The notes: a model not told the origin generated them from the letters alone. A stretch of DNA of 64,000 nucleotides from an uncultured Bacteriovoracaceae bacterium (GCA_964513375.1 CAZEMO010000003.1:92730-156729), one strand, 5' to 3'. Shown: positions 5,185 through 47,265, numbered from the stretch's first letter. Numbers and translations are program-made.

Positions 5185-5275
5185 CAGTGATATCTTTTTA
5201 TCTTATTGTTTTTATATAATTATATTACATTTATTTTTTATATTTATTTTTTATTGACGTTATTGGGTCATTATA

Positions 5276-9095: not shown

Positions 9096-9115
9096 TGCCT
9101 TTCTCCTTTAATGTT

Positions 9116-10213: not shown

Positions 10214-10328
10214 ACCCTCTCTTGCTAATTGGATTTTGTATAACAATTTTAAATCCCTGCATTACTTGATGGCTTTTGTCAAATGTTTCAGCAGTTTTTT
10301 ACTTCTCATCTACTATTTTTTTAAATGA

Positions 10329-14271: not shown

Positions 14272-16404
14272 CTAACGCCAAGTTCTAACAACCACCGGAA
14301 GCCAGAGACATGACTGATTCTCCCGGTCATGCCATAAAAAGGCGGTTCCGGGTTTCCTTGACTGAAGGAAAAAATAATCGGAAGTCGAAACAGTAAGCCT
14401 TATCCTGTGCCCCTTTTTTATAAAGCAGGCCATGGCCCTTAAATCTGTCTGATGGAGCTGGACATTGCTTTTTACAGCCATCGCCTTTTCGGTATAGACC
14501 CTGAGCGGCGTAACGCCGTTGTTAAGAACCCTGGCATCGGCATTGATCTTTTCTGCGCCCAGGCTGTCATCCGAATTTATCGAACTTCCCGGTGGGACAT
14601 CATAGAGCTTTATGAAACAGGTTATGTCCGTAGAATTCGAAGAGAGGTACAGCTCAACGAGGGGTATGCCTGTTATTTCAGCATCATCTTTGAACGGTTC
14701 GCTTTCAAATGTGACCGATGTTTCGGTCGAATCAAACGGTTCCGGCGGTTCAGGCAGCGAGCCCTGGATTGCCTGAATTTCAGAAAGGCTTGTCTTTGCA
14801 AGCGGGATGTTCCTGAACTGGCTGCAGAGTGCTTCACTGTCATAATCAAGTGACGAGGCGTCATATTCTACCTTACCGCCTCCATTTTTTGCGCATTTCA
14901 GGTAGTTCTTTCCACCTGTCGAATGAAGCATCAGCTTCATCTCGCCGCCTTTTTCAACAAGCGGCCAGCTTCCGTAATATCTTGCCGCGTCTCCATCCGG
15001 ACCCACGATATCGTATGAAAGTTCAGGTCCGGTATCGACGTCGATGCCACTCAGATATCTGTCCATCCATTTGAGCACGATCTCTTCGTTATAGGGCGGG
15101 TTCTCGGGCAGATAGCCGTGGCCGCCCGCATACCAGTGCATCTTTGCCTCGATCCCGTTTGCCTGAATCTGCTCGAGATTGGCTATCGCCTGGTTAAGGT
15201 CGAAGACAGTGTCATCCTCGCCCTGTATGAAAAGCGCTGGTGCAAGCACATACTGCGTTCTCGTTGAGGGCGACCTCATCATCAGCTCATCCTTCATGCC
15301 GGGCTTGAATTCGTTTTCCAGCAGCAGAGTAAATATGAAGTCGGTAAGCATAGGATCGACGCCTGTCCCTTTAAGCGCCCTAGCCATACCCTGCAGATAA
15401 AAGCCGCTTGCCCATAGTATCTTGAGCGATTCGCCAGGGCACAGCGCATCAAGCAGATTGTTCCATGTCCTTTCAGGCGTGATGCAGTCTATCCTGTGGT
15501 CATATGATGCTGTCAGCACCTGAAGCGCCCCGCCATATGAGCATCCGTTCATGCCAAGAACGAAATCCCTTGTCTCATCCCCGGGTATATCGTCCTTCTC
15601 CTCTATGTCATCCTGGTTGAAATCATAATTTATGATTTTGCCGTTGTCGAAAAACCACTCCGGCCTGCTTTCCTCAATGACGAACTTCTGCTCTGCAAGC
15701 CAGTTTATAAGCCTTATGGTATCCTTGATTTCATACTGGGTCGAATCGAGTCTGACGATGCCGGTTGATTTGCCCCATCCCCGCGCCGACCAGACAAAGG
15801 TAGCGTACCCCGTATCCCTGAAGTTTTTTGCACGGCCGGCCATTTCATCAAGATCCGAATTCCATCCGTGGCCTATCATGATTACAGGGTATGGTGGCTC
15901 GCCCTTGGGGAGATAAAGCCGGCATTCGAGTTCCTCTCCATCAAAACTTTTAATGAAGAAAACTTCGCTTTCCCTCGGCGAATTGATGCCGCCGTTCTTC
16001 GGATCGCCGTCGATCGCATCCTGCAGCAGATCGCCATCAGTATCTCTTGGGTATACAGTTACAATGCACGTGTCCCCGGCTGTTTGTCCGTCAATTCCCG
16101 TGATTGTGACTTGAACGGTATATTTACCCGGGGCCTTGTAAACATGACCGGCCTGAAAACCGCTTGCACAGGTATTGTCGCCGAAATCCCATTCAACGTA
16201 CTGTGCGTCGCATGCGGGTGTAGCAAATGTGATTTTTTCAGACATATCGATTTTTCTGTCCGGGCCTGCATCTCCGACAAGATATAATTTAGGCGATTCT
16301 TCAGATGAGGCGCTGTTGTCTCCCGAGTTATTGTTTGAACAACCGGCAGTTAAAAACAGAACAATTATTGCCAGCCATATAAGATTTGAAGTTCCTCGAT
16401 GCAT
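14272..16404 (-). CDS. CocE/NonD family hydrolase (S15 X-Pro dipeptidyl-peptidase-like alpha/beta hydrolase) lipoprotein with an N-terminal PKD-like domain
   Basis: The track start is a TTG. The start was reassigned to 'MHRGTSNLIWLAIIVLFLTAGC', which has a lipobox. Motifs are 'VIMIGHGWNSD', the nucleophile elbow 'GCSYGG' and the C-terminal beta-sandwich domain typical of CocE/NonD. Confidence 0.8.
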   Translation of the reverse strand: MHRGTSNLIWLAIIVLFLTAGCSNNNSGDNSASSEESPKLYLVGDAGPDRKIDMSEKITFATPACDAQYVEWDFGDNTCASGFQAGHVYKAPGKYTVQVTITGIDGQTAGDTCIVTVYPRDTDGDLLQDAIDGDPKNGGINSPRESEVFFIKSFDGEELECRLYLPKGEPPYPVIMIGHGWNSDLDEMAGRAKNFRDTGYATFVWSARGWGKSTGIVRLDSTQYEIKDTIRLINWLAEQKFVIEESRPEWFFDNGKIINYDFNQDDIEEKDDIPGDETRDFVLGMNGCSYGGALQVLTASYDHRIDCITPERTWNNLLDALCPGESLKILWASGFYLQGMARALKGTGVDPMLTDFIFTLLLENEFKPGMKDELMMRSPSTRTQYVLAPALFIQGEDDTVFDLNQAIANLEQIQANGIEAKMHWYAGGHGYLPENPPYNEEIVLKWMDRYLSGIDVDTGPELSYDIVGPDGDAARYYGSWPLVEKGGEMKLMLHSTGGKNYLKCAKNGGGKVEYDASSLDYDSEALCSQFRNIPLAKTSLSEIQAIQGSLPEPPEPFDSTETSVTFESEPFKDDAEITGIPLVELYLSSNSTDITCFIKLYDVPPGSSINSDDSLGAEKINADARVLNNGVTPLRVYTEKAMAVKSNVQLHQTDLRAMACFIKKGHRIRLTVSTSDYFFLQSRKPGTAFLWHDRENQSCLWLPVVVRTWR

Positions 16405-16801
16405 CTTTGAATACCCCCCCCACTTAAGCAATCATAATAACAGTATCAACAGCAAATACTCATACAATAATTTAGAACTGTCAAGAAAAGACCGTCAGGA
16501 GTCTTTTCGCAGGGTAATATTTTTTAAATTATAATTTAAGTTAGCACCTCAGATGCTGTGATGGTTAGTGTCTGCTGTGTCTATCCTTGATTATCTCTGC
16601 ATGCTTTAAGATTTCAGTTTTTTCAGTCATCGTGCAAAAAGATCGTTATTTTACAATCAGCGTGTCCCTTATTGATTAGCTGATGAGTTCCTTAGATGAC
16701 TAGTAAAATCAAAGGCTTTAAGTTTTTCCTTAACAACTTATTATCTCAACAGCTATTATGTCCCGAATAGGAAGCGGAACATGTAATATAAGAAAGATTG
16801 A

Positions 16802-30865: not shown

Positions 30866-31915
30866 CTATTCTCCCCAGGTGTTGATGACGATATCGTCAA
30901 GGTAGATATTATCTATGATAAACAGATCGTCATATACAAAGTTGATTGTCGAAACCACTGTGTTGACTGCCCATGTGCGCTGAACCCAGGTATTGGGATC
31001 TTTCGGATCCAGGATGTGATACTTGCCGTCAATCCCATGCGGATCGCGGGGGGCAGGAATTCCATTGAGCATAAGAGTCCCATCAACATAGAGCCTGCTG
31101 TGGACTGCAGAAGAACTGCTACCCTTTCTGTACATCCAGGCGCTTATTGAATAGACATAGGTTGGCTGCGGGAATGGGAAGCTCAGGACAAGCTTGTTGT
31201 CGTTATCATGGCCTGTTTGGGCATCAGGTTTAAAAGACAGGAAACCGCCATGTACATAATCGCTCGGGAATGAATAGTCCACATTGTCTGCAACAGTTAT
31301 AACCCATGGCGCTGATATGCATGATTCGAAGCTTCCGTTAAATGTATCGAGAGTGACCTTGCTTGCCTTGCTGAAAAGGTCTCCGTCGGATACTACGAGA
31401 TTGAACACATAGCTGCCTTCTTTGTCCGGTATGAATGTCGGACTTACGGCAGTTTCACCGGAAAGTGCAGCTGTGCTGCCAGTAGGTTTCTGCGTTATAC
31501 TCCAGGCATAGGTCAGGTCGGAGCCATCAGGGTCATAACTCGCTGTGCCATCCATGATCACCTTGCCGCCGAACTGAACAATGCTGCTGTTGATTGCGGC
31601 AATGGCGATAGGCGGGCTGTTAACCTTTATATTCCATGTATGTGTATCCATGCCCAGACCATGTTTGGCTTTGACAGTCAGTGTGTGTTCCCCGGCTTCA
31701 GCAGTATAAATATAGGACCATTCAGAATTTGGAAGGTCAACATCATCCATGGTCCAGGTGTAGACGGCATTTGACGGAAACACTTTCATGCTGAAAGTCA
31801 TGATCTCGCCCAGCGTCATGTCAATATCATTTGTATCCGGCGATTTAGACAAGACACAGCCGCTCAGGAAAGTAGCAATAATTATAACATACAAAAAACA
31901 AAGAGATCGTTTCAT
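30866..31915 (-). CDS. Lipoprotein paralog: shared N-terminal module, a PKD/Ig-like domain and a C-terminal beta domain of unknown function
   Basis: The start was reassigned to 'MKRSLCFLYVIIIATFLSGC'. The N-terminal 90 aa are clearly homologous to the N-terminus of the 10406 gene. 'DGTASYDPDGSDLTYAWS' is a PKD motif. Confidence 0.7.
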   Translation of the reverse strand: MKRSLCFLYVIIIATFLSGCVLSKSPDTNDIDMTLGEIMTFSMKVFPSNAVYTWTMDDVDLPNSEWSYIYTAEAGEHTLTVKAKHGLGMDTHTWNIKVNSPPIAIAAINSSIVQFGGKVIMDGTASYDPDGSDLTYAWSITQKPTGSTAALSGETAVSPTFIPDKEGSYVFNLVVSDGDLFSKASKVTLDTFNGSFESCISAPWVITVADNVDYSFPSDYVHGGFLSFKPDAQTGHDNDNKLVLSFPFPQPTYVYSISAWMYRKGSSSSAVHSRLYVDGTLMLNGIPAPRDPHGIDGKYHILDPKDPNTWVQRTWAVNTVVSTINFVYDDLFIIDNIYLDDIVINTWGE

Positions 31916-32022
31916 AAAGTTCCTCCTCAACTGATTTTTTATTGAATCAAAACATAAAAACTTTTTTTTATTTATAGCATACACTGCAAACACAAGTCAA
32001 CGTAATGGAATTTGCCATTAAA

Positions 32023-32250
32023 TTAAAGATCTCCCCTGCCTGATATTTCGACCTTTGACTCAAGGAGTTTTCTGATTTTTTCCTCATCCACCTGTTCAAT
32101 CCGCAGACATACACCGCAGTTTGAACTTATGTGTCTTGGAACAGGAATAAGCTTGTGCGATACGCCCTCTGCTTTTAATATTTTTTCAGCCATCATCGCA
32201 TGGCTGACCGATTCAAAAAGCAAAGCGACATATTCTCTGACAGGACTCAT
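32023..32250 (-). CDS. DUF3343 family protein
   Basis: 75 aa. 'IPVPRHISSNCGVCLRI' is the characteristic motif. Confidence 0.65.
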   Translation of the reverse strand: MSPVREYVALLFESVSHAMMAEKILKAEGVSHKLIPVPRHISSNCGVCLRIEQVDEEKIRKLLESKVEISGRGDL

Positions 32251-32846
32251 GGTTTGATCAGTCTGGTTGCTGATGACATGACTGAAAGAATCTCGAACAT
32301 GTTTGTAATCTTTCCCGCTCCGGTTTTGCCGGACAGGTTAAAGAAATTGACGCATGTGCCGCACAGAAGAATCTCCACTCCGGCATCGGTAAGGTTTTCA
32401 AGGTCTTCCAATACTTCCGAATCAACTGCCGCCAATTTGACACCCGCATTGTAAAACAGCAGTTTTGAAGGAAGCTCATCCGCTTGAATTAGGGTATGAA
32501 TGAACGCCTTCATGAGAACCTTTCCAAGTTCGTCATCTCCCCTCCCCATTGTTTCAGAAGAGATCACGGCGACCAGTTCGCCCGATGAAGCGCTGCATGA
32601 GACTGGAACATCCGCAATAGCAGCCGTTTCGATATTCACCCCTGTCATATGTATATTGAATTCGCTTTCCCCGGAGTTCTCGATTTCCACTGAACAGCCT
32701 AGCTTTGCTCCCAGCCTTCTGACGTTTTCCATTGCAGTTTTATTATCGACGATGACAACGATGCTCTCGTTTTCTTCAAGGGCTTTTTTTGCAAGGATAA
32801 CCGGCTGCGGGCAGTTCAAACCGCGTGCATCAACGGTTTTCTTCAT
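32247..32846 (-). CDS. yedF: YedF-like protein: TusA-like domain plus DsrE/DsrF-like domain
   Basis: N-terminal 'RGLNCPQPV' CPxP motif. C-terminal 'VISSETMGRGDDELG' and 'LLCGTCVNFF'. Confidence 0.7.
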   Translation of the reverse strand: MKKTVDARGLNCPQPVILAKKALEENESIVVIVDNKTAMENVRRLGAKLGCSVEIENSGESEFNIHMTGVNIETAAIADVPVSCSASSGELVAVISSETMGRGDDELGKVLMKAFIHTLIQADELPSKLLFYNAGVKLAAVDSEVLEDLENLTDAGVEILLCGTCVNFFNLSGKTGAGKITNMFEILSVMSSATRLIKP

Positions 32847-32860
32847 ATTTCAAACTCCTT

Positions 32861-34027
32861 TCATGAACTTCGGCTGATTTCATATAGAGCCTTCAGGCTG
32901 TAATCTATCTCTTCTTCCGTATTGAAATACGCGAAACTGAACCGCAAGGTGCCCGCCGGGAATGTCCCGATTGTTCTATGAGCTTGTGGCGCACAGTGGA
33001 GGCCGGGCCTGCACATTATATTATATTTTTCATCCAGGATAAGGGAAGCTTCCGACGGGCTTATGCCTGAAAGGTTGAATGAAACAACAGCAATCCTGTC
33101 CGAAACCAGCTGCGGCCCGTAAACAATTGCACCTTTTATCTTTTTCAACCCTTCAATGAATTGAGAGATGAGCGACACCTCCTTATCCCTGATTATATCG
33201 ACTCCAGTTTTTTCTATGAACCGGATGCCGGCATTGAGGCCTGCAATCCCGATTGCGTTCGGCGTTCCCGATTCATATTTATCAGGCATGAAATCAGGCT
33301 GCTGCTCAAATTCAGATTTGCTGCCCGTGCCCCCGGACATTATTGGAGAAATAGCTTGTTCCAGTCCCTTTCTTATATAAAGTCCCCCAGTACCCTGCGG
33401 CCCGAACAAAGATTTGTGCCCTGTAAAAGCAAGAATATCGACACCCATGCCTTTGACATCAATCGGTAATGCGCCTGCTGTCTGTGCAGCATCCGCACAG
33501 AATATTATTCCGTGATCCCGTGCAATACGCCCGACTTCGGTAACAGGCATGACTGCGCCTGTAACATTTGAGGCATGAGTCAGGTATATCGCCCTGGTAT
33601 CCGGCTTTATTGCACGCCTTATACCATCCGGGTCAAGCATGCCTGTTTCGGAACAGCCTACGATATCAAGCCTGACGCCTGACAATTCCAATGACCTTAA
33701 GGGCCGCATGACTGAGTTATGCTCCATGCTTGAAGTTACGCAGTGGTCTCCAGGTTTCAGCAGTCCTTTTATTGCTATATTGAGAGCTTCTGTGGCATTT
33801 TTAGTGAGTACAATACGCAGAGGATCATCAGCCCCTAAGATACTGGCTATTCTATCCCTTGCCTCGAATATGACCCTTCCTGAATCAATGGACTTTTTGT
33901 GGCCAGACCGGCCAGGACTGGCCCCGATTCCGACGCTGAAATCCGTCATGGCCTCTATCATTGATTCCGGCTTTGGCCACGAAGTAGCAGCGTTGTCGAA
34001 ATAAACAGTTTCCACCTGTATGATCAC
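32861..34027 (-). CDS. Cysteine desulfurase family protein (class-V aminotransferase)
   Basis: 'YFDNAATSWPKP', PLP lysine 'FTGHKSLFGPQGTGGLYI' and a C-terminal Cys loop 'RPGLHCAPQAH'. Confidence 0.85.
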   Translation of the reverse strand: MIIQVETVYFDNAATSWPKPESMIEAMTDFSVGIGASPGRSGHKKSIDSGRVIFEARDRIASILGADDPLRIVLTKNATEALNIAIKGLLKPGDHCVTSSMEHNSVMRPLRSLELSGVRLDIVGCSETGMLDPDGIRRAIKPDTRAIYLTHASNVTGAVMPVTEVGRIARDHGIIFCADAAQTAGALPIDVKGMGVDILAFTGHKSLFGPQGTGGLYIRKGLEQAISPIMSGGTGSKSEFEQQPDFMPDKYESGTPNAIGIAGLNAGIRFIEKTGVDIIRDKEVSLISQFIEGLKKIKGAIVYGPQLVSDRIAVVSFNLSGISPSEASLILDEKYNIMCRPGLHCAPQAHRTIGTFPAGTLRFSFAYFNTEEEIDYSLKALYEISRSS

Positions 34028-35214
34028 TCCGTAATTTCCATAAGTGCCTGCACCCTTGTTTTTATCTGTTTAATATCGCTTTCCGAATAATCTGTCTCAA
34101 TCTTCAGGAACGGCAGGCTGTGTCTTGTCTTTACGTGCTCCCTCACCCTGAATGATTCGATGTTGTACGCATGGCATGCATGGAGGATTACGTCAATCAC
34201 CATGTCTGGCCTGTATTTTTCAATCAGTTCATCAAGCTTGTTTAGCCTTCTATCATTGGGTGACATGCATGAGCAGTGGAGATCCATATACCGTTCTGAC
34301 AGTGCCATCACAGGGTCGTCAGTGTCTTCGGCAATTGTTCCCATAAAGGGCTTAAACCCCGTACAATTATCGATGGCGACAATGACGCCACCGGACTCTT
34401 CTACGGCACGATAGACCTTCATGGCATCACCGCCGACAGGACACCCCGTTATGAGAACACGAGGCAAATCGGCACTTCCAATCGAGAGACACTGCTCTTT
34501 CCTTATCTGAAGTTTCTTTAGACAATCTTCAAGGATGGGTTTCATATCTTCATATGTTGCAGGCTGGGCAAGATATGTAAGGTCATATATCTCGGCCCAT
34601 TTCAGATATGAAGGTTTCATTGCAGCATAGCTGAAAATCTGTTCAAGCAGCTTGTTCTTCATGTTTGAATCCCTGATCTCGTTCTCGATAGCTGAATCAT
34701 CGATTTTAACCGAAAAGGTCTCTTCAAAGAACGACTGAAGGTTTCTTATTATCTGAGCCCAGTTTTTCCTTGCTGTCATACTGTCGGGCATTTGCGGAAG
34801 GTCCATCACATACATTGGTTTTTTATCCGCGATAAGTTCAAACATCTTTTTTTTGCCGTCACAGGTGGTTTCAGCGACAACCGCTTCGGATAAAGCGAAA
34901 AACGGGCATGAATCCGATATTATGAACCCATAGCTGGATTTGATGAGAGGGCACAGATTTGAAGGCAATACAGACTCGGAAACATCAATCGTCTTATTTG
35001 AAAAAGCGCACAGAACTGCGGGGACCGCACCCATTGCCCTGAAAAGTTCCAGAGGCGCAAAACCGCAGTAGGTACCGATTATGGGCCTGCCTTCTTCCCT
35101 CTTCGACTGTATATATGACAGAGCCCTTTTGCTCGGCTCGCCAGCAAACTGATCGTTAAAAAGTGGTTCAATAGTATTGTCTTTGAGCATAATCACCTCA
35201 TTTGCTTTTTTCAT
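34024..35214 (-). CDS. HgdB/BcrC/BadD family protein (2-hydroxyacyl-CoA dehydratase D-component-like, possible double-cubane-cluster protein)
   Basis: 'GRPIIGTYCGFAPLELFRAMGAVPAVLC' is the hallmark of the HGD-D family, and there are multiple conserved Cys. It overlaps the desulfurase gene by 4 nt. Confidence 0.7.
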   Translation of the reverse strand: MKKANEVIMLKDNTIEPLFNDQFAGEPSKRALSYIQSKREEGRPIIGTYCGFAPLELFRAMGAVPAVLCAFSNKTIDVSESVLPSNLCPLIKSSYGFIISDSCPFFALSEAVVAETTCDGKKKMFELIADKKPMYVMDLPQMPDSMTARKNWAQIIRNLQSFFEETFSVKIDDSAIENEIRDSNMKNKLLEQIFSYAAMKPSYLKWAEIYDLTYLAQPATYEDMKPILEDCLKKLQIRKEQCLSIGSADLPRVLITGCPVGGDAMKVYRAVEESGGVIVAIDNCTGFKPFMGTIAEDTDDPVMALSERYMDLHCSCMSPNDRRLNKLDELIEKYRPDMVIDVILHACHAYNIESFRVREHVKTRHSLPFLKIETDYSESDIKQIKTRVQALMEITE

Positions 35215-35224
35215 CCGGCATGTA

Positions 35225-35254
35225 AGTATATTTAAGATTGACAGGTTTAATCAA
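35225..35254 (-). promoter_or_regulatory. Sigma-70-like promoter (TTGATT, 18-nt spacer, TATACT) for the HgdB-like operon. The transcript would be near-leaderless.
   Basis: Read from the minus strand. The -10 box ends about 11 nt before the ATG, and no SD is present. Confidence 0.35.
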
Positions 35255-35321
35255 ATAACTAGAATTAATAAAATACATCATCATATTCAAGATTATCATA
35301 AATATTGTAGAGGAGATTATA

Positions 35322-35714
35322 ATGGAAACCGTCAAGTTCAGAATTCTGGCGTATTTCGAGATTCTCACTGCTGTCGGTCTAATCCTTTTCTGGATTTGTT
35401 TCTTCACAATCGGTCTTGCGCCTGCGAATGCGCCTGAGTGCTATTTTGCATATGAGCATTCTTTTCCTTTGCCCGATATAACCATGGCTGTTTTCATGCT
35501 TGCCGGAGGAGTTCTGCTTTTAAAAGGCAGCAATACCGGCAGAATGATCTCTCTTGCATGTTCGGGAGGACTGGTTTTCCTGGGCTTGCTCGACTTCAGC
35601 TTCAATATTCAGAACGGGGTTTATCTCACATCAACGATGGATATGATTCTTAATGCTTTTATAAATATCTGGTGTGTTGTCTTCGGTTTTACCATTTTTA
35701 TGAAGCTGAAATAG
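35322..35714 (+). CDS. Hypothetical integral membrane protein (4 transmembrane helices)
   Basis: Hydrophobic segments. GAGGAG RBS. Confidence 0.5.
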   Translation: METVKFRILAYFEILTAVGLILFWICFFTIGLAPANAPECYFAYEHSFPLPDITMAVFMLAGGVLLLKGSNTGRMISLACSGGLVFLGLLDFSFNIQNGVYLTSTMDMILNAFINIWCVVFGFTIFMKLK

Positions 35715-36925: not shown

Positions 36926-39379
36926 ATGAAACATTCATTATTAATCGGCAGCAAGTTCATCATCTTTTCGTTTCTGGCGATTTTGATTACTTTTTCAGGC
37001 TGCAAACTTAAGCCAGTTCCGGCAGGCACTTTTGTCATGGGCAGCCCGGAAAACGAGTTCGGTCACAGGGCAAATGAAGTTCAGCATGAAGTGACCCTGA
37101 CATATGATATCGAAGTCGCTTCGACAGAGGTCACCTGGAGCGATTTCAAAAGCCTCATGGGATTTGATCCGAGCTATTTCTCAAAAACCCTGCCAAATCC
37201 GGGAAAGCCCGTTGAAAACGTCAGCTGGTATGATGCCCTTGCATATGCAAACGCAAAGTCCATTAAAAAGGGGCTTGCCCCTGCCTACATATTAAATAAC
37301 GCCGTATGCGATGATGGCACAGCGGTTACCGACTGTATGGAATGCAAGACTCACGGGGGAATTAAATCCGCTGATGTCAGTCTGAACGGCATTGCCAGCG
37401 TTTACCAGGCAGAGGGATACCGACTTCCGACAGAGGCCGAATGGGAATATGCGGCACGTGCCGGGTCGACCTCACCTGTTTACAACGGCGAGATTTCTGT
37501 TCCAGGATGCGAAGGCGACCCCATACTTGATAAAATCGCCTGGTACTGTGCTAACAGCTCAAGTTTCACACATAACGTCGGCCTCAAATCACCAAATAAA
37601 TGGGGCCTTTATGACATGAGCGGGAACATCGAGGAGTGGTGCTGGGATAATTACGGAGACTATGCAGGCGATATAATCAATCCCACTGGCCCGGATACCG
37701 GACATTTCAAGGTTGTACGCGGCGGCAGCATCCGTTTCGACGGTTCCTCCAGGCTGCGTTCGGCATACCGTGAAGGATTCACTCCAGGCTACAGATGCCG
37801 TTTTATTGGCTTCCGCCTGGTAAAAACCAAGAACCCTTCCGCCAGCGCCGGAATCAATGTTGTATTAAACCCCGCCACACCACCTTCTTATGAATTAACA
37901 GCGAGCATACCTGATTACCCGAATGCACTGCCATTCTCATTCACGAGGGTAGATGAAGGCACACCTCTTACAGATGCAGAGATAAAGGCCTTTACGAAAA
38001 AGATCACAGGCCTATGGAAAGACACTCACTATTTTGAATGGATGTATCTTACAAGCAACGGGATGGACGAGTCCAACCCTTACGGCATGCCATGGTATAA
38101 GGCGCACCTGCAGGATTTTTCAGCCGAGAAGAACGGAGACACCGTCACATTCCACCACGGCGGAGGATCGGATAACCTCTGGATCCGTTCGGGTAAGATG
38201 CTCAACAATGTGATTGCAGGGTACCTGGCAAGCAGCGATCCTCTCATGGGAAAGATCGCCGAAAGCTATTGCAGGGGTATCGAAGCATTCTTCAAGGGCG
38301 AAGAATACAGCGACAATGACCCTGAAAGAACCATCATGCCCCGCTGCATATTCACGCAAAACCATGAATACACAGTACTCGGCAGAAAGGTTAAGGTTGA
38401 TTATGACCCGGTCAAGACGCACGGCGAGAAATATGACTGGAATGCACACACCATACCTAACCACATCAATCCGTATTACGGCGATATCTATATAAGGAAT
38501 ATGAGGAGCAAGGACGATGTCCCGCATATCTACAGAATGGTCCCGATGATAATGCGGCTTGCAAAAGAGGCCCCTGATGCAAACATAAGAAACGCTGCAA
38601 CAAGGGCGGTTGCCTACCTGCAGGCGTTCGCCAAAGACATAGTTGATTCCGGCTATTACATCAGAGCGAAGGACAAGGAAGGGAACACTAAAATAATGTT
38701 TGAAGAGGAAACTTCCTGGCTGGTAAAAGACCTGATGAGTTTCGTGAATTTCGAAATGCTGGTGCCTAACGCTGAATGCAACGCCAAGATGACATCCGCC
38801 ATTCTGGGCTATCAGGATCCGCTCTGCAACGACTGCGGAAGCGGAACAATAAACCTTTACGATATGGTCGCCGGTCAAATCCATTATTACAACATGGCGA
38901 TCGTAGTATATTTCCATCAGGCCGCTATTTCGAATGCGCTTACAAATAATAAGGACTACATAGCACTGGAACTGATCCAGGGAATGTCGGACAGGATGGA
39001 TGCCATGATGGCCGGAAAAGGCAAACCGACAAAAGAACCATGCCCTGACTGGGAGCCTGATCTCGCAACCCACCTTCTGGTTGCCGCATCAAACGGGCTT
39101 CCTCTGAAGTCATCTGAAGCAAGACTGATCGCAAACGAGTACAGCAAGGCTGTGGATCATTATATAACATGGCCCAACTGGAACCTCTGGTCGCCGACAG
39201 TTCCGAACGGCATTGTATCCTACATACCGGGGAACAGCCCGACAACCGATACCCGTGTCGTGGGAGCGGACGAGCTCGCATACCTCCTGGAGTACTGCTA
39301 CTCTCCGTTAAAAAACTCGACCGGAGCAAAGCTCTGTGACTGCAGCATAGTGCTTGACCCCTCACGCTGGGGTGAGTAA
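36926..39379 (+). CDS. Lipoprotein with an N-terminal FGE-sulfatase (DUF323) domain fused to a C-terminal domain of about 530 aa with unknown function
   Basis: Lipobox 'TFSGC'. 'PAGTFVMGSP', 'VSWYDALAYANAKS', 'LPTEAEWEYAARAG', 'WGLYDMSGNIEEWC' and 'RGGS'. No catalytic Cys pair. The remainder (aa 290-817) matches nothing I recognise. Confidence 0.8.
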   Translation: MKHSLLIGSKFIIFSFLAILITFSGCKLKPVPAGTFVMGSPENEFGHRANEVQHEVTLTYDIEVASTEVTWSDFKSLMGFDPSYFSKTLPNPGKPVENVSWYDALAYANAKSIKKGLAPAYILNNAVCDDGTAVTDCMECKTHGGIKSADVSLNGIASVYQAEGYRLPTEAEWEYAARAGSTSPVYNGEISVPGCEGDPILDKIAWYCANSSSFTHNVGLKSPNKWGLYDMSGNIEEWCWDNYGDYAGDIINPTGPDTGHFKVVRGGSIRFDGSSRLRSAYREGFTPGYRCRFIGFRLVKTKNPSASAGINVVLNPATPPSYELTASIPDYPNALPFSFTRVDEGTPLTDAEIKAFTKKITGLWKDTHYFEWMYLTSNGMDESNPYGMPWYKAHLQDFSAEKNGDTVTFHHGGGSDNLWIRSGKMLNNVIAGYLASSDPLMGKIAESYCRGIEAFFKGEEYSDNDPERTIMPRCIFTQNHEYTVLGRKVKVDYDPVKTHGEKYDWNAHTIPNHINPYYGDIYIRNMRSKDDVPHIYRMVPMIMRLAKEAPDANIRNAATRAVAYLQAFAKDIVDSGYYIRAKDKEGNTKIMFEEETSWLVKDLMSFVNFEMLVPNAECNAKMTSAILGYQDPLCNDCGSGTINLYDMVAGQIHYYNMAIVVYFHQAAISNALTNNKDYIALELIQGMSDRMDAMMAGKGKPTKEPCPDWEPDLATHLLVAASNGLPLKSSEARLIANEYSKAVDHYITWPNWNLWSPTVPNGIVSYIPGNSPTTDTRVVGADELAYLLEYCYSPLKNSTGAKLCDCSIVLDPSRWGE

Positions 39380-40338: not shown

Positions 40339-41754
40339 ATGGATGAAACAATGTCCTTTTTGAAAGCAGGTGTTGACAGAATAATCATAACGCCTCCCCG
40401 CGGTATTTATCTGATCGGATATTCAGGAAGAAAGGGCGGTGCGGAAGAAGTACATTCCGACCTTACGTCAACAGCACTCATCCTCGATGATGGAAATGAA
40501 AAGTTGGTCCTTATTTCACTCGATCTGCTCGCACTCAACCGGGAGACGGTTGACGCCATAAAGAGAGGTATAACTGCAAGACTCGGAACTGCTGCAAATA
40601 GCATAAGGCTTTTCTGCTCACATACTCATTCGGGACCCATTGCCTGGCCGCCATATAAACCCGCAATCAAAGACAGGATGAAATATTACCTTTACAGGCT
40701 AATGCTTTCGGCAGAGGAACCGCTCTCGACAAAAGGCATAATGACCAACTATTTTTACTGTGACTGGCTGGTGAAAAGCATTATTGCGTCTGCAACTCGC
40801 GCTGAGGCAAACCTTATGGATGCCGAAATAAACCATGCCCGGACAGAATGCTCTATCGGCATCAACAGAAGGGAAAGGCTTCCTGACGGCACAACCGTCA
40901 TAGGCTGGAATAAGGAAGGCACTGTTGACAGGAGTGTTGATATCTTAAGGGTTTCAAGCGGCGCGAAACCTGTTGTCACGATTGTCAATTACGCCTGCCA
41001 TGCCTGCGTGCTGGGCGAAGAAAGCAACGTGATCTCCGCTGACTGGCCGGGAGCGATGAGGGCTCGGGTTGAAAAGGAGCTGGGCGGCCTCTGCATGTTC
41101 ATTCAGGGGGCATGCGCCAACATAAACCCCGATGTAGAGTGGTCGGACGACAACAGACCTGATGTAGAGCGGCTTGGCGGTATAGTCGCTGAATCTGTTA
41201 TTGAGGCTGAAGGAAGGCTGACTAAAATAAACTCTCTACCCTTGTCAGGTGTTACGGGCGAGACCAATGCCTATTTGGATGTTCCCGCAGGCATGGAAAG
41301 TTTGAGTGTTAAAAGGATTTACAGGCCCATGCTTAAAAAAGGGGCTGCCATGCTCATGGAAGGTGCGGTGATACCCGAATTTATGATAGACCCGTTTCTT
41401 GATGTCCGCTATCCCTGGAAGACTATATTGAACCGTGATGATAAGGGCTATTTCACCCCAATACGAACCGGCGTGATTCGCATAGGCGATATTGCAATTG
41501 CCTCGGTAGCGATGGAGACATTTACGGAAACAGGCATTGAGACGAAGAAGGCATCAACCGCACCGATAACCCTTTTCACGGGATATACCGACGGTATGAC
41601 CGGCTACCTTCCGACTGCTGAGGAAATCTCCTTTGGAGGCTACGAGGTCGATGTCGTGGCTTACATTTACAAGCTACCTGGAAGATTCAGGCTTGATACG
41701 GAAAAAAATGTAAGAAAACTTCTTTTGGATCAAATTAATATGATCTTTGCGTAA
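40339..41754 (+). CDS. Neutral/alkaline ceramidase-like hydrolase (N-terminal ceramidase_alk domain)
   Basis: 'VDRIIITPPRGIYLIGYSGR' and 'GNEKLVLISLDLLAL' resemble the neutral ceramidase N-terminus. 'CSHTHSGP' is also present. Confidence 0.6.
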   Translation: MDETMSFLKAGVDRIIITPPRGIYLIGYSGRKGGAEEVHSDLTSTALILDDGNEKLVLISLDLLALNRETVDAIKRGITARLGTAANSIRLFCSHTHSGPIAWPPYKPAIKDRMKYYLYRLMLSAEEPLSTKGIMTNYFYCDWLVKSIIASATRAEANLMDAEINHARTECSIGINRRERLPDGTTVIGWNKEGTVDRSVDILRVSSGAKPVVTIVNYACHACVLGEESNVISADWPGAMRARVEKELGGLCMFIQGACANINPDVEWSDDNRPDVERLGGIVAESVIEAEGRLTKINSLPLSGVTGETNAYLDVPAGMESLSVKRIYRPMLKKGAAMLMEGAVIPEFMIDPFLDVRYPWKTILNRDDKGYFTPIRTGVIRIGDIAIASVAMETFTETGIETKKASTAPITLFTGYTDGMTGYLPTAEEISFGGYEVDVVAYIYKLPGRFRLDTEKNVRKLLLDQINMIFA

Positions 41755-41773
41755 GTTAAATAAGGGAGGGCAA

Positions 41774-43645
41774 ATGGAAAGGACGTCATTATTATTTGTA
41801 TTTGTGTTTGTTACCATCATAACAGGTTGTTCATACTTTAATAAGAACATGCCTGATCATGACATCATGGTATCTCATAAAAAGTGGAGATACTTTTTAA
41901 TGTTTAGAAAAATTATCGTAATCATTACTTTGATACTTTTCCTTTCAATTTCTGCGAATGCAGAGTCATTGCAACAGTTGCCTCAAATCTCGAAAGAAGA
42001 TTTTTATCAGCTTATCAAGAAAGCAGATACTAGTGATGCCAATGCGCAGTTTTTGCTTGGCATGCGATATTTGCATGGATGGAGCACAAACAAGGACGAG
42101 ATGGAGGGTGTCAAATGGCTGACAAAAGCTGCTGACCAAGACCATGCTTATGCGGAATTCTTTATTGGAGTCATTTACTGTTCCGGAGGTAGCGTTATTA
42201 AAGCCGATAACAATAAATGTATTGATTTGATTACTAAAGCCGCTAAACAAAATATCAAAGAAGCACAAACATTTCTCGGCCAATTTTACTGTGATGGTGA
42301 AATAGTCACAAAGGATTATGTAAAAGCTATGGAATGGTTTAAAAAAGCAGCAGATCAGGGATATGAAGATGCTCAGTATAGAATTGGCAAACTATATGAA
42401 GAAGGAAAAGGCGTTTCTAAAAATGATCAAGAAGCTGTTAATTGGTACGCAAAAGCTGCAACACAAGGATACGGCAAAGCCCAGATGGTATTAGGTTATA
42501 TATATTCTAATGGCGATGAGTCTGTAAGAGATTATAAAAATTCGTTTGAATGGTATGTCAAGGCTGCTCAGTCAGGTATCCAAGAAGCTTTTTTCAATGT
42601 AGGTTTGATGTATGAACAAGGAAGGGGAACGGGAAAAGACTACGCAAAAGCAATAGAGTGGTACAGGAAAGCAGCTGAATACAATGATGCCAAAGCTTTA
42701 TATGCAATCGGCAATATGCATGAGAAAGGTTTGGGAGTTAGAAAAGACTGTAATGAGGCTTTGAAATGGTATCAAAAATTAACTGATAACGGATCTGTTC
42801 AAATTATGTTTTATATTGGAATGATGTACTGGAATGGCTCTTGTGTTCAGAAAAATGATGTGCAGGCTTTAAAATGGTTTTTAAAAGCTGCAAAAGAAGG
42901 ACAACCTGATGCTCAGGCCATGGTCGGGATTATGTATTATGAGGGAGAAGGTGCATCACAAAATTACTCTGAAAGCATGAGATGGCTTTTAAAGGCATCA
43001 GAACAGGGTAATCCGGAATCACCCTATTATTTATATCAAATGTATAAGAATGGAAAGGGAGTTCAGATTAATAATAATGAAGCGGCTAAGTGTTTAAAGC
43101 TATCAGCAGAAAGGGGATATTCTGAAGCGCAAAGAAACCTTGGAACAAGTTATTATTTTGGAAAGGTCACAGAAAAAAATAAAGATGAAGCTGTCAAATG
43201 GTATAAAAAAGCCGCAGAACAAGGTGATGATAAAGCGCAGCAAAGACTTGGAAAGATATATCTTCTAGATGAAAACTTTAAAGAAGCAGTTACATGGCTT
43301 GAGAAGTCAGCTAATCAAAATAATGCAGAAGCCCAAAATGATTTGGGTTATATGTATGATAAGGGACTAGGTGTTACTCAGGATTATACAAAAGCTTTTG
43401 AACTTTATAAGCTCTCATCTGAACGTGGATATATGTATGCCCAACATAATCTTGCTATATTGTTTGAGCAGGGACATGGAACAAAACTTGACATTGTACA
43501 GGCATATAAATGGTTTTCTTTATCTGCTGAACAGGGCGATGAACAAGCAAAAGGTAAAGTTAGTGAGCTTGATAAGCTTTTGCCAAAAGAACAGATTAAC
43601 GAGGCAAAACGCTTGATTGCAGAATATAAGTCTGAAAAGAATTAA
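41774..43645 (+). CDS. Sel1-repeat (SLR/TPR-like) lipoprotein
   Basis: The start was set at 'MERTSLL', which follows a strong AAGGGAGGG RBS, with lipobox 'IITGC'. There are about 14 repeats of 'A..W..KAA.QG...AQ..LG.MY..G.GV..D...A'. GC is markedly lower (about 35%) than in neighbouring genes. Confidence 0.85.
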   Translation: MERTSLLFVFVFVTIITGCSYFNKNMPDHDIMVSHKKWRYFLMFRKIIVIITLILFLSISANAESLQQLPQISKEDFYQLIKKADTSDANAQFLLGMRYLHGWSTNKDEMEGVKWLTKAADQDHAYAEFFIGVIYCSGGSVIKADNNKCIDLITKAAKQNIKEAQTFLGQFYCDGEIVTKDYVKAMEWFKKAADQGYEDAQYRIGKLYEEGKGVSKNDQEAVNWYAKAATQGYGKAQMVLGYIYSNGDESVRDYKNSFEWYVKAAQSGIQEAFFNVGLMYEQGRGTGKDYAKAIEWYRKAAEYNDAKALYAIGNMHEKGLGVRKDCNEALKWYQKLTDNGSVQIMFYIGMMYWNGSCVQKNDVQALKWFLKAAKEGQPDAQAMVGIMYYEGEGASQNYSESMRWLLKASEQGNPESPYYLYQMYKNGKGVQINNNEAAKCLKLSAERGYSEAQRNLGTSYYFGKVTEKNKDEAVKWYKKAAEQGDDKAQQRLGKIYLLDENFKEAVTWLEKSANQNNAEAQNDLGYMYDKGLGVTQDYTKAFELYKLSSERGYMYAQHNLAILFEQGHGTKLDIVQAYKWFSLSAEQGDEQAKGKVSELDKLLPKEQINEAKRLIAEYKSEKN

Positions 43646-43750
43646 ATAAATTTCATAAGATGCAAAGTATGATTTCTAAATCATGGGGGGATGCGATCTG
43701 TCGTATCTGTCTAGTTATAAAAAGAGTAATAAGCAGGAGGTAATTTTTAT

Positions 43751-44740
43751 ATGGATTTCAGGAAAGTTCCCAGCAAGGAATCGCTTCTGGACAAATCGAA
43801 GAAGCATCTGTTCATGTTTTCCCACCACGACGATGAAATCGTATGCGCAGGGATAATACAGAGGCTGCAGCCGGGTGCTGCACTCATGTGGCTGACGAAT
43901 TCGGACGGCCTTTATTTCAAGGAGAACGTCACACCCGAAGAGTATGGAAAAAAACGTGTCGCCGAAGGATGGAACGTTTCGCGCGAACTGGGTTTCAGGG
44001 ATGAGGACGTCACCAACGGGCTTTATTCCGAAGTGGACAATTACAGGCTCTTTGTGGACTCGATCAAGAGCGAGGCGCAATTCGAAGAAGGCATTTCTTT
44101 CTGGAGAAAACAGGGCCGCGACATTTACGCCAAGATAAAGAAACACGACCCGGACATAATCTGGACATATGCATTCCAGGGCGGCATGCCTGAGCATGAT
44201 CTTACCCATGTCCTGACAGCTGCTTGTATAGACAGCTACGAGAAGGAGTTCGGAAAGAAAATCCAGATGGTGGAGATCCCGGCATACGAACTTACCGTTC
44301 TCATCTCCTTCCGCTTCAATCCCTGGTATAAGGGAACCAAGTATTACATCGACATGACGCGTGAAGAGCTCTTAAAGAAGCTTGCTGCCGCCTTTCACTA
44401 CCCTTCGCAGGTTGAGCTTATAGAGAAATTCAGGAAAGTCATCGACAATCTCGGCAAGGCCTCTGGCCTCATCGGAAAGCCTTTTAATTTCGAATCATAC
44501 TGCGGCAGGGAATATTTTGCGCCTGTCTGCGAACCGCGTGACTATTCGAGACCCCCCTACCGTATAGACTTCTTCAACTACATGTTCGATGACTATCTGG
44601 GTGAGCCTGTCAAATTTATCGGCATGATGGACAGAATTTTTCATGAACTCTCAAAACCCGTGTTTCATATCAGGCAGGAAAACGCCGTTGATGACGAGTC
44701 GCATTCCTGCCACCAGAAAGGCTGCGCATGCTGTGAATAG
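43751..44740 (+). CDS. PIG-L/LmbE-like deacetylase family protein with a Cys-rich C-terminus
   Basis: 'LFMFSHHDDEIVCAGII'. The tail is 'SHSCHQKGCACCE'. Confidence 0.7.
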   Translation: MDFRKVPSKESLLDKSKKHLFMFSHHDDEIVCAGIIQRLQPGAALMWLTNSDGLYFKENVTPEEYGKKRVAEGWNVSRELGFRDEDVTNGLYSEVDNYRLFVDSIKSEAQFEEGISFWRKQGRDIYAKIKKHDPDIIWTYAFQGGMPEHDLTHVLTAACIDSYEKEFGKKIQMVEIPAYELTVLISFRFNPWYKGTKYYIDMTREELLKKLAAAFHYPSQVELIEKFRKVIDNLGKASGLIGKPFNFESYCGREYFAPVCEPRDYSRPPYRIDFFNYMFDDYLGEPVKFIGMMDRIFHELSKPVFHIRQENAVDDESHSCHQKGCACCE

Positions 44741-45909: not shown

Positions 45910-47265
45910 ATGATCAAGGCAATCATATTTGATTTTGACGGGACCATCATGGACACCGAAAGCACTTCGTTCAACATATGGCGTGAGATCTATTCCACCC
46001 ACGGACACGAACTGACTCTGGAAAAATGGGCTGAATGCGTAGGCATACCGGAAAGCAGCTTCGATCCTTATGAAGACCTGATGGAACTTACCGGCCTACC
46101 GCTTGACCGCATGGAAATGGCCCTTACCTACGTGACAAGGGAGTCTGAATTGAATAAGGGATTGCCTTTGCTTCCGGGCATTGAAAAGATAATCCTTGCT
46201 GCAAAAAGTATCGGCCTTAAGCTCGGAATTGCCTCAAGTGCGGACCATAACTGGATCGAGGAACACCTTGGAAGAAAAAGACTTCTGGGCAGGTTTGACG
46301 CAATCATATGCAGGGAGGATACTGAAAGACACAAACCTTTTCCCGACCCTTATCTCAAGGCAATTGAGGTTCTCGGCTGCAAACCCAGTGAAGCTATTGC
46401 CATAGAAGATTCTCCGAACGGCATAAAAGCAGCCAAGGCTGCCGGTCTATTCACAGTTGCAGTCCCAAATCAGGTAACCCATTCCTTTGTAGGCGATGAG
46501 GCTGACCTTAAACTAAAATCGCTGGCTGATATTACACTCAAAGAACTACTGGCAAGGGGGGTTCGTATGATAAACAATTTAATCAATCAGGTGATTACCG
46601 ATAGCAGTAAATATCTTGCCGGTTTTGCAGACATGACCGGCCTCATTAATGAAAAATACTCCGGATACAATTATGCAATATCTCTTGCCCGACATCTTGA
46701 CAGTGAAATCATCGATTCCATAGATAAAGGCCCGAACAGAGCTTATTTCGATCATTATAATGAAGTTAACCGGGAATTGACCGAAGCAGTCCAGAAGATA
46801 TCAGCAAAGCTTACCGGAGACGGGTTTGACAACATCCCGATAAATCCAACCGTTACAGATGATATTCTCACCGATAATTATTATAAGACCTTAAGAATGG
46901 CATTTTCTCACAAGATGGCTGCCACCAGGGCTGGAATCGGCTGGATAGGAAAAACCGACCTGCTTGTCACAAAGGAATATGGCCCGAGGGTAAGGCTGGC
47001 AAGCATTCTTTTGAAAGAGAGAATCACTGAGCCGAATGCGCCGCTTGAAGAAAGTTTGTGTGGGGATTGCGAGGTCTGCGTTGTCAACTGTCCTGCGCAG
47101 GCCGCAACCGGAGAATTATGGAATATACACACCGACAGGGATAAATTCTATAATCCCTTCAAGTGCATGAAAAAGTGCAGAGAACTGTCATTAAACAATC
47201 TGAACGAACATATCAGCCTCTGTGGCATATGCGTGTCTCTTTGCCCGAAGGGACGACAAACATAA
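45910..47265 (+). CDS. Fusion protein: N-terminal HAD-superfamily hydrolase (beta-PGM-like) plus a C-terminal QueG-like 4Fe-4S domain
   Basis: 'IIFDFDGTIMDTE' is HAD motif I, with 'IEDSPNGIKAAKAAG' as motif III. The C-terminal 'AGIGWIGKTDLLVTKEYGPRVRLASILL', 'CGDCEVCVVNCP' and 'CGICVSLCP' resemble the epoxyqueuosine reductase core. Confidence 0.7.
   Translation: MIKAIIFDFDGTIMDTESTSFNIWREIYSTHGHELTLEKWAECVGIPESSFDPYEDLMELTGLPLDRMEMALTYVTRESELNKGLPLLPGIEKIILAAKSIGLKLGIASSADHNWIEEHLGRKRLLGRFDAIICREDTERHKPFPDPYLKAIEVLGCKPSEAIAIEDSPNGIKAAKAAGLFTVAVPNQVTHSFVGDEADLKLKSLADITLKELLARGVRMINNLINQVITDSSKYLAGFADMTGLINEKYSGYNYAISLARHLDSEIIDSIDKGPNRAYFDHYNEVNRELTEAVQKISAKLTGDGFDNIPINPTVTDDILTDNYYKTLRMAFSHKMAATRAGIGWIGKTDLLVTKEYGPRVRLASILLKERITEPNAPLEESLCGDCEVCVVNCPAQAATGELWNIHTDRDKFYNPFKCMKKCRELSLNNLNEHISLCGICVSLCPKGRQT

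Follow-up and report, generated by a model that had tools for sequence, protein, structure and literature searches.

A predicted four-gene operon joining a double-cubane cluster protein to a selenocysteine lyase-type enzyme, YedF and DUF3343 in an uncultured Bacteriovoracaceae bacterium

We have analysed a 64,000-nucleotide stretch of DNA from an uncultured Bacteriovoracaceae bacterium (GCA_964513375.1 CAZEMO010000003.1:92730-156729), referred to below as the window, in which four minus-strand genes join a double-cubane cluster protein (DCCP) to three genes, here called the relay, of the kind associated with the handling of selenium and sulfur. The comparative evidence set out below shows the operon type to be real and conserved; it joins two known kinds of system and has as yet no functional explanation. 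The four genes, with positions counted from the first letter of the window, are listed here in their 5' to 3' order.

34024-35190, minus strand: DCCP, YjiM-like short form (NF040772, HGD-D; the longest open reading frame (ORF) extends to ATG 35214)
32861-34027, minus strand: class-V pyridoxal phosphate (PLP) enzyme of the SclA/TIGR01977 family (TIGR01977; alternative start GTG 34015)
32247-32846, minus strand: two-domain YedF, N-terminal TusA-like plus C-terminal DsrE-like (TIGR03527, TusA)
32023-32250, minus strand: small protein of 75 aa, DUF3343/Se_S_carrier, with a CGxC motif (PF11823)

The corresponding ORFs are co-directional and nearly touch: 34024-35214 (396 aa), 32861-34027 (388 aa, GTG start), 32247-32846 (199 aa) and 32023-32250 (75 aa). 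When the start of each longest ORF is used, the first two genes overlap by 4 nt, the next pair is separated by 14 nt and the last two again overlap by 4 nt, so that the tight packing described in the first-pass annotation of this DNA was found again. The boundary between the DCCP and lyase genes reads GTGA, and a strong AAGGAG lies 8 nt 5' of the yedF ATG. The junction between yedF and the DUF3343 gene is an ATGA overlap, and this overlap of the DUF3343 gene start with the yedF stop suggests translational coupling. Both flanks carry unrelated housekeeping or envelope genes: those for a PKD lipoprotein, Lgt, SPFH/NfeD and MntP on one, and on the other a small membrane ORF followed by genes for an epimerase and a protein with an FGE-sulfatase domain.

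The product of the first gene scored 435.3 bits against NF040772 (cut-off 350), with residues 34-394 covering positions 11-371 of the 372 in the model, and 329 bits against Pfam HGD-D, which is also above the cut-off. Its nearest relatives of solved structure are the C. hydrogenoformans DCCP entries 6ENO and 7YYL (E 4e-67). Cysteines 50, 69, 88, 103, 118, 284, 314, 316 and 347 all face cysteines in the alignment to these structures, and 13 homologs, E. coli YjiM (43% identity) among them, keep the same nine without exception. The seven-cysteine motif, comprising six cluster ligands and one cysteine near the opening, is present as Cys 50, 69, 88, 118, 284, 316 and 347. A literal regular expression of the published cysteine spacing failed on this protein, as the X-counts in print denote differences between positions, and the alignment to the solved structures was used instead. 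The alignment begins at residue 34 of the window protein and residue 60 of the solved DCCP, the N-terminus being ~26-34 residues shorter, which identifies it as the short, YjiM-like 'class II' form. The best match in a representative genome is from a Desulfomonilia metagenome-assembled genome (MAG), at 66% identity. No physiological substrate is known for DCCPs, which are ATP-driven reductases and carry a seventh cysteine at the cluster opening; the cluster in the C. hydrogenoformans structure is all-sulfur [8Fe-9S] (PMC7317905). Scores against the dehydratase and reductase equivalogs were 37.8 bits for HadC (cut-off 700), 39.7 for BcrC (421), 51.2 for BzdN (454) and 17.1 for BcrB (487). As a candidate dehydratase or class I benzoyl-CoA reductase subunit the protein was rejected, since these equivalogs fall far below cut-off and the partner subunit is absent from the window.

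The second gene product scored 308 bits against Aminotran_5 and 482.3 bits against TIGR01977 (cut-off 377), and fell below the cut-off of the strict SclA model NF040779 (404.9 bits against 525). With the motif definitions of bioRxiv 10.1101/2020.02.07.939272, the PLP lysine is K205, in H204-K205, and the group-II motif (RXGXHCA) is RPGLHCA at residues 340-346, its cysteine being C345. Residues H103-N104 align with H99-H100 of SclA, so that SclA H100 is represented by Asn104. The founding TIGR01977 member, E. faecalis SclA (EF2568), is selenocysteine-specific, with cysteine acting as a competitive inhibitor, and its H100N mutant is still an active selenocysteine lyase (bioRxiv 10.1101/2020.02.07.939272). 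The enzyme in the window is probably either a selenocysteine lyase or a cysteine desulfurase.

The third product matched TIGR03527 (YedF) over the full length of the model (1-194 of 194) with 208.6 bits (cut-off 110), and Pfam TusA with 60 bits; the separate Pfam DsrE match was below its cut-off (17 against 22.7). All of 12 homologs share C12-P13 (CPxP motif) and C162-G163-x-C165 unchanged, and the comparison with solved structures gave matches to TusA-like domains only. The fourth matched PF11823, Se_S_carrier (formerly DUF3343), with 75.4 bits against a cut-off of 25, and had no NCBIfam match. Among 28 homologs there is no variation at C45-G46-V47-C48, P36-V37-P38 or H40, and an 85%-identical protein is labelled Desulfomonilia. 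Judged by this label and by the 66%-identical DCCP of a Desulfomonilia MAG, the source would probably be a member of that class (Thermodesulfobacteriota). An AlphaFold2 model (predicted local distance difference test score, pLDDT, 78) has a beta-alpha-beta-beta-alpha-beta fold with the CGxC in the loop before strand 3; the comparison with solved structures gave no significant match. Each of the best 120 homologs has a single domain and a length of 73-95 aa, and there was no domain fusion among them. These results bear out the first-pass annotation on all four products: a protein of the 2-hydroxyacyl-CoA dehydratase D-component family, possibly with a double cubane, a class-V cysteine desulfurase, a YedF-like fusion of TusA and DsrE/F, and a DUF3343 protein.

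When 164 loci were translated with TGA as U, no selenocysteine/cysteine pairs were found in the profiles of the five families; every U fell either at the real end of a gene or in spurious sequence that lay upstream and out of frame, and none stood at a conserved cysteine. A YedF homolog on a metagenome contig (L087 499-1101) is split by an in-frame stop ~72 codons in, and this ORF was not among the TGA read-through hits; the stop may be a codon other than TGA, the mark of a pseudogene or a sequencing error. Two proteins of 177-179 aa (L023 19530-20060 and L082 2646-3182) have an N-terminal DUF3343 followed by an unannotated C-terminal domain with 'GGGCPD[IV]PYL', and both adjoin a 70-aa TusA-like gene.

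The order DCCP-lyase-YedF-DUF3343 is kept in three further loci, in which the DCCP is 89% (L168), 82% (L167) and 65% (L169) identical to that of the window. The flanks differ from those of the window, in L169 entirely, and there is no gene for an activator ATPase (activase) within 10 kb of L167 or L169. The four genes travel together as a unit.

The wider association was assessed in a forward survey of 80 DCCP loci, with one genome per species and up to 10 kb on each side, in which the DCCP, activase, lyase, YedF and DUF3343 genes were each recognised with a profile of our own and the family calls were spot-checked with Pfam. Since the profiles were made from stop-to-stop ORFs they took in out-of-frame extensions, and the resulting spurious split 'DUF3343' matches inside yjiL were discounted. 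An activase gene was found within 3 kb of the DCCP gene in 49/80 loci. At least one relay gene was present at this distance in 30/80: DUF3343, the one most often beside DCCP, in 26/80, YedF in 16/80 and an SclA-type lyase in 9/80. All three relay genes were near DCCP in 7/80 loci within 3 kb and in 10/80 within 10 kb. The chance expectation is ~0.5% (up to three copies in a 4-Mb genome), a figure that is an estimate and not a computed control. Eleven of the 80 loci resemble the window in having relay genes and no activase within 10 kb.

The linkage occurs in at least five DCCP clusters at 50% identity, in several phyla and with varied gene orders. DCCP-YedF-DUF3343(-lyase) is found in Syntrophales, Smithella and Spirochaetota, DCCP-activase-lyase-DUF3343-YedF in a Eubacteriales MAG, activase-DCCP facing DUF3343-lyase-YedF in Kistimonas and DCCP-activase-DUF3343 in Enterobacteriaceae. 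DUF3343 stands beside DCCP and activase, with neither YedF nor SclA, in Enterobacteria and C. sporogenes. The spread over several DCCP clusters with different gene orders indicates that the linkage has survived rearrangement, and the recurrence fits the idea, put forward in the first-pass annotation, of an undescribed redox or maturation system linked to selenium or persulfide. SelD, the selenophosphate synthetase, adjoins DCCP in loci L024 and L042 and adjoins relay genes in L059; SelB lies inside the DCCP loci L012 and L023. In related loci, a second and longer HGD-D paralog (27-33% identical to DCCP; HGD-D ~389 bits) often adjoins or diverges from the DCCP gene (L009 3427-4920, L012 8464-9762, L011, L016, L017, L024, L030, L042, L054 and L074); there is none in the window.

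In a reverse survey we collected 80 YedF loci from metagenomes and used the 36 of at least 8 kb to count neighbours within 10 kb. DUF3343 was found in 27/36 of these long loci, the SclA-type lyase in 25/36, SelD in 16/36, SelA and SelB in 6/36 each, DCCP in 5/36 (~14%) and activase in 3/36. DUF3343 was present in 54/80 YedF loci, mostly without DCCP or activase. From these neighbour counts, the trio of YedF, DUF3343 and SclA is, as far as gene neighbourhoods tell, primarily a SelD-linked selenium module of which DCCP is one recurrent neighbour. DCCP, relay and SelD are combined in three loci of this survey (L111, L138 and L147) and also in L059, and the neighbourhoods show a three-way network of SelD, relay and DCCP.

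Several proteins expected alongside these genes are absent from the window. A phmmer search of the six-frame translation with E. coli YjiL, taken from the annotated K-12 record, gave no activase match at E<=10, nor did an activase profile built from 52 loci; of the 56 ORFs with 90 aa or more, 53 were scanned with Pfam, which gave a single HGD-D protein and no BcrAD_BadFG (PF01869). The statement of the first-pass annotation that the 64 kb contain no HgdA-like partner or activator ATPase was therefore upheld, and no gene for the ATP-dependent activase that DCCPs need (DCCP-R/archerase, BcrAD_BadFG) adjoins that of the DCCP. Its further remark that the first protein 'stands alone' is true only of position within these 64 kb: members of the same 50%-identity DCCP cluster adjoin a BcrAD_BadFG activase in L011, L013, L016-L019, L023 and L024, and for this reason the missing activase is probably encoded elsewhere in the genome. 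E. coli seeds for SelD, SelA, SelB and YedE found none of these in the window, so that the selD neighbour looked for beside a TIGR03527 protein is lacking within it. There were also no tRNA genes (including tRNA-Sec) or Rfam families in the window, and the Pfam ORF scans found no Fe-S scaffold (IscU, NifU, SufBCD or HesB) in the operon or the window.

The starts, promoter and ends of the operon were considered with the help of the following features.

35194-35199, minus strand: Shine-Dalgarno sequence GAGGTG, 4 nt before ATG 35190 (sequence reading; orthologs)
35225-35254, minus strand: sigma-70-like promoter candidate TTGATT-18-TATACT (9/12 match; conserved in orthologs)
35234-35271, no strand assigned: near-invariant intergenic block (34/38 positions the same in three orthologous loci)
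31971-32000, minus strand: promoter-like TTGACT-18-TATAAA after the operon, before the PKD lipoprotein gene (sequence reading)

The DCCP gene very probably starts at ATG 35190, giving 388 aa, rather than at 35214, because the N-termini of the orthologs, a conserved Shine-Dalgarno sequence and a frame-breaking indel all point to this codon. DCCP orthologs of 82-88% identity are 388-389 aa long and begin a few residues before a conserved EPL(I/F)NDQFAGEP. GAGGTG-N4-ATG marks position 35190, and GAGGTGATTATG is identical in L168, the 89% ortholog, whilst L167, the 82% ortholog, has the G-rich Shine-Dalgarno-like GGGGTGGGGA immediately 5' of its start. Relative to L168 there is a 1-nt indel upstream of the Shine-Dalgarno sequence, which disrupts the frame of the putative 8-residue extension. 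Similarly, the lyase may start at GTG 34015 (384 aa, with an 8-nt gap to the DCCP gene) instead of GTG 34027; its 89% ortholog is 384 aa, the same length as from GTG 34015, and lyase orthologs in general are 383-387 aa.

Upstream of the DCCP gene the minus strand reads ...TTGATT-18-TATACT-tacATGccggATGaaaaaagcaaatGAGGTGattATGctc. The hexamers (35254-35225) match the consensus at 9/12 positions, and since shuffled sequence gives 7.4 +/- 2.6 matches of this quality and the region itself 10, the match alone is not above chance. The candidate rests on conservation and not on scan counts, scan hits being at the shuffled expectation: TTGATT is kept in L167 and L168, the -10 element is TATACT in L168 and TATATT in L167, and the leader 3' of the hexamers has diverged among the orthologous loci while the 38-nt block at 35234-35271 is near-invariant in three of them. 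This block holds the operon -35 element together with a divergent plus-strand TTGACA-16-TAGAAT (35238-35265) matching at 11/12 positions, and either of the two predicted promoters may drive its conservation. An operon promoter in the region 35225-35254 is plausible. If it is real, the leader is ~27 nt long and includes a Shine-Dalgarno sequence, and the mRNA is therefore not leaderless. The near-leaderless sigma-70-type promoter proposed earlier at this position thus does not hold with the start at 35190 and its GAGGTG; a leaderless mRNA would have its transcription start at or near the start codon and no Shine-Dalgarno sequence, which, judged from sequence, is not the arrangement here. A 130-aa membrane ORF without a Pfam match (35322-35714, plus strand) faces TTGACA-16-TAGAAT, and both the ORF and the block are kept in L167.

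At the other end, the 108-nt gap 3' of the operon contains TTGACT-18-TATAAA, then GAGGAGG and then ATG 31914 of the PKD lipoprotein gene. No intrinsic terminator was predicted after the operon in the promoter and terminator scan. The downstream PKD lipoprotein gene is missing or different in L167, L168 and L169. Because of the promoter-like site and Shine-Dalgarno sequence in the gap, and because the downstream gene varies between orthologous loci, the operon most likely ends at 32023. The PKD lipoprotein gene (30866-31993, minus strand) looks as if it had been inserted, and it comes with a promoter-like site and a strong Shine-Dalgarno sequence of its own; it is missing from L168, where lgt lies directly 3' of the operon, and its real start is probably ATG 31914, which opens the lipoprotein signal MKRSLCFLYVIIIATFLSGC.

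Elsewhere in the window there are further features of some interest. A separate minus-strand sulfur/redox cluster at 1566-8434 encodes a fusion of Pyr_redox_2 and rhodanese (CoA-disulfide-reductase-like), a C_GCAxxG_C_C protein and an MBL-fold protein, and faces a gene for a 1052-aa sigma-54 activator with TPR. The minus-strand segments 8469-10246 and 12946-13707 concern a B12-binding protein and a URO-D-like methyltransferase, a pair like a corrinoid methyltransferase system, and a DUF364/DUF4213 'heavy-metal chelation' protein encoded nearby. Two large FGE-sulfatase-domain proteins are encoded on the plus strand at 10406-12250 and 36926-39379, one of them with PKD domains; PKD-domain lipoproteins recur at 30866-31993 and 14272-16431. 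A Sel1-repeat protein with 11 repeats lies at 41747-43645 (plus strand), and the region 42001-44000 has the lowest GC content of the window (0.384) and its highest GC skew (+0.244). At 45910-47265 (plus strand) a HAD-family hydrolase is, unusually, fused to a 4Fe-4S dicluster domain at its C-terminus.

The association described here has been partly anticipated. YedE, YedF and DUF3343 were proposed as selenium genes by Lin et al. 2015, whose Table 1 lists for Slackia, without comment, a consecutive activase-DUF3343-selenocysteine lyase-YedF-DUF3343-HGD subunit cluster; two-domain YedF was found almost only in SelD genomes, and DUF3343 also in SelD-lacking organisms, with no selenium-specific subfamily (PMC5322559). 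Kayrouz et al. placed yedF and duf3343 in the top five genes overlapping selD (bioRxiv 10.1101/2022.04.13.486033). The model NF040772 was built by Haft 2022, who found 955 of the 970 proteins scoring above 400 bits (98%) in SelD genomes, and named a selenium-bridged cluster as a formal possibility that would explain this co-occurrence (bioRxiv 10.1101/2022.07.06.499078). Double-cubane proteins are unmentioned in a 2026 review of prokaryotic selenoproteomes. We found no paper describing the DCCP-SclA-YedF-DUF3343 operon type as a system. The genes that founded TIGR01977 and TIGR03527 in E. faecalis are said, by Haft and Self in 2008, to lie with a selenium-dependent hydroxylase. The claim in the first-pass annotation that the coupling is not a described pathway is thus true as regards biochemistry, but the association had been seen in part, in the Slackia cluster and in the SelD profiling; to our knowledge the gene-neighbourhood evidence for the link between DCCP and the relay has not been laid out before.

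The interpretation that we favour, with a probability of roughly 0.35, is that this is a conserved selenium-handling operon in which the DCCP reductively releases selenide from the carriers for SelD. The SclA-type enzyme would take selenium from free selenocysteine and hold it as a perselenide on Cys345 (with sulfur, a persulfide derived from cysteine), and the chalcogen would then move to Cys12 of the YedF TusA domain and on to the CGxC pairs of YedF and DUF3343. An archerase encoded in trans would charge the DCCP with low-potential electrons. The DCCP might then reduce carrier-bound Se(0) or selenenylsulfide, or the CGxC disulfide of the carriers, DUF3343 docking into the open active-site cleft of the short DCCP class, and selenide would be freed for SelD encoded elsewhere. 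The potential of Se(0)/HSe- at pH 7, calculated from standard potentials, is ~ -0.72 V; since this is below ferredoxin, an ATP-boosted reductase is thermodynamically sensible. We favour reductive release of selenide because each protein keeps its known or predicted role and the proposal matches this very negative couple. The earlier suggestion of a persulfide- or selenium-dependent maturation or redox system agrees with the comparative data in its general form; the particular form given here, a reductase supplying SelD, is a proposal.

A number of points weigh against it. The steps of the mechanism are inferred, and both SelD and the activase are assumed, neither being in the window. Since 31/36 long YedF loci lack a DCCP, the relay in most organisms must serve SelD with no help from one. 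In vitro, thiols can free selenide from selenium bound to the lyase, so an ATP-driven step is not obviously required. In many genomes two to three DCCP paralogs lie beside one relay or activase (L011, L014 and L009), a pattern easier to reconcile with a set of client enzymes than with a single housekeeping reductase. The score below the cut-off of the strict SclA model, the presence of DUF3343 in organisms that lack SelD (Lin 2015) and the lack of selenocysteine/cysteine pairs in five families over 164 loci would also be compatible with sulfur.

In the main rival reading the relay would instead serve the DCCP, delivering sulfur or selenium into the double cubane for assembly or repair of the bridging mu2 atom or to make a selenium-bridged [8Fe-8S-Se] cluster, and the DCCP would be a consumer of the element and no stage in the supply of SelD; we regard this as a tentative possibility. 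The DCCP is the sole Fe-S client in the operon, one relay or DUF3343 occurs with several DCCP paralogs (L011, L014, L009 and L054) as would be expected of a maturation set, DUF3343 alone follows DCCP-activase in Enterobacteria, and most relay loci are without DCCP. The other neighbours of the trio include the selenium consumers SelA and SelB, and there are parallels with NifS in nif clusters and with SelD, SclA and YedF beside selenium-dependent molybdenum hydroxylases. Against these stand the absence of an IscU, NifU, SufBCD or HesB scaffold, the fact that TusA/DsrE relays are not known as Fe-S assembly factors, and the 50/80 DCCP loci with no relay gene within 3 kb. The more specific version, in which the relay and a SelD encoded elsewhere in the genome insert selenium into the double cubane, would account for the 98% co-occurrence with SelD, and is the cofactor named by Haft 2022, but a selenium-containing Fe-S cofactor would be without precedent, and the C. 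hydrogenoformans cluster is all-sulfur (PMC7317905); we consider it rather improbable. A purely sulfur-based system, with a cysteine desulfurase, persulfide on YedF and DUF3343 and a DCCP that either reduces persulfide or polysulfide or uses the sulfur in a thiolation or small-molecule pathway unrelated to SelD, seems unlikely. It would accord with the lack of selD, selA, selB and yedE in the 64 kb, with the NF040779 score, with the NCBI name 'cysteine desulfurase family protein' for TIGR01977, with the occurrence of DUF3343 in SelD-lacking organisms without a selenium-specific subfamily, and with the lack of selenocysteine-containing variants in the 164 loci. It sits poorly with the near restriction of two-domain YedF to SelD genomes (Lin 2015), with SelD within 10 kb in 16/36 long YedF loci, with the 98% of NF040772 proteins above 400 bits that are in SelD genomes (the window DCCP scoring 435), and with the preference for selenocysteine and inhibition by cysteine of the only characterised TIGR01977 member.

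DUF3343 could alternatively be a small redox or electron-transfer partner, for example a dimer that holds an Fe-S cluster between its subunits through its two cysteines, or a dithiol-disulfide protein acting through CGxC, that feeds or regulates the activase/DCCP pair, with YedF and SclA linked only indirectly. It is the relay gene most often by DCCP and activase (26/80), and in Enterobacteria and C. sporogenes neither YedF nor SclA is there with it; its only two conserved cysteines form the CGxC, on a fold that is ferredoxin-like in the predicted model. Yet, because 54/80 YedF loci carry DUF3343, mostly without DCCP or activase, its core partnership is with YedF, SclA and SelD, and we think this role very unlikely. 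Hardly credible, finally, is the reading of gene 1 as an ordinary 2-hydroxyacyl-CoA dehydratase or benzoyl-CoA reductase subunit that neighbours a selenium module by chance. It would suit the Pfam family, HGD-D, and the genes for enoyl-CoA hydratase, thiolase and 3-hydroxyacyl-CoA dehydrogenase elsewhere in the window, but it is already contradicted by the HadC, BcrC and BzdN scores far below cut-off (38/700, 40/421 and 51/454), by the absence of an alpha partner from the window and by conservation, the four-gene unit being kept while the flanks change and the linkage occurring in many lineages.

Double-cubane proteins, including E. coli YjiM, have a structure and nitrogenase-like chemistry in vitro and no known physiological role, whilst among selenium-associated genes that lack a function YedF and DUF3343 are the most persistent. 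What is new here is a direct, conserved physical link from DCCP to selenocysteine lyase, YedF and DUF3343, phylogenetic profiling having previously tied DCCPs to SelD. The link could reveal an ATP-driven selenium-reducing step before selenophosphate synthesis, or the maturation of a new selenium- or sulfur-dependent cofactor. If the selenium-bridged cofactor were true, biology would have a fourth use for selenium besides selenocysteine, selenouridine and the labile Mo-Se cofactor, or a fifth on a count that takes in the small molecules in which selenium has lately been discovered; the near confinement of NF040772 proteins to SelD genomes would be accounted for, and operons such as this one would be a maturation cassette together with its client. 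The minimal DCCP-activase-DUF3343 version in E. coli makes the role of DCCP experimentally approachable.

Comparison with known systems brings out what the window shares with each of them. The C. hydrogenoformans DCCP/DCCP-R pair (6ENO, 7YYL) belongs to the same family, and all cluster cysteines and the cysteine near the opening are common to both; the window protein differs in being shorter N-terminally, in having no adjacent DCCP-R and in its position in a selenium/sulfur relay operon. In E. coli K-12, yjiM-yjiL-ytiA is DCCP-activase-DUF3343 (NC_000913.3, 4563668-4565850; L003 8669-10851): YtiA, annotated as 'uncharacterized protein', scores 48.9 bits against PF11823 and has the CGxC motif, and ytiA overlaps the yjiL stop. 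The same order is found in Raoultella, Citrobacter, Klebsiella, Kosakonia and Atlantibacter loci. The E. coli locus thus shares the DCCP-DUF3343 linkage, with YjiM 43% identical, but has the activase YjiL between the two and neither SclA nor two-domain YedF, YedE and a short YedF being encoded away from yjiM. The Slackia heliotrinireducens cluster has the relay families of the window together with an activase and HGD-D subunits (PMC5322559). The SelD-based neighbourhoods (Haft and Self 2008; Zhang 2008; Lin 2015) contain the same three relay families with the same YedF-DUF3343 adjacency; there, the relay accompanies selD, selA, selB, yedE or selenium-dependent molybdenum hydroxylases, whereas the window has no selD, selA, selB or yedE in 64 kb and places the relay in a predicted operon with DCCP instead. 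NifS in nitrogenase clusters and the TusA-DsrEFH-DsrC relays likewise set a PLP desulfurase-type enzyme or carriers beside a complex Fe-S redox enzyme, and the expected chemistry, Cys-to-Cys transfer of a zero-valent chalcogen, would be shared; the window differs in having no NifU-like scaffold or DsrC, and its carriers, two-domain YedF and DUF3343, are those of the selenium-associated set.

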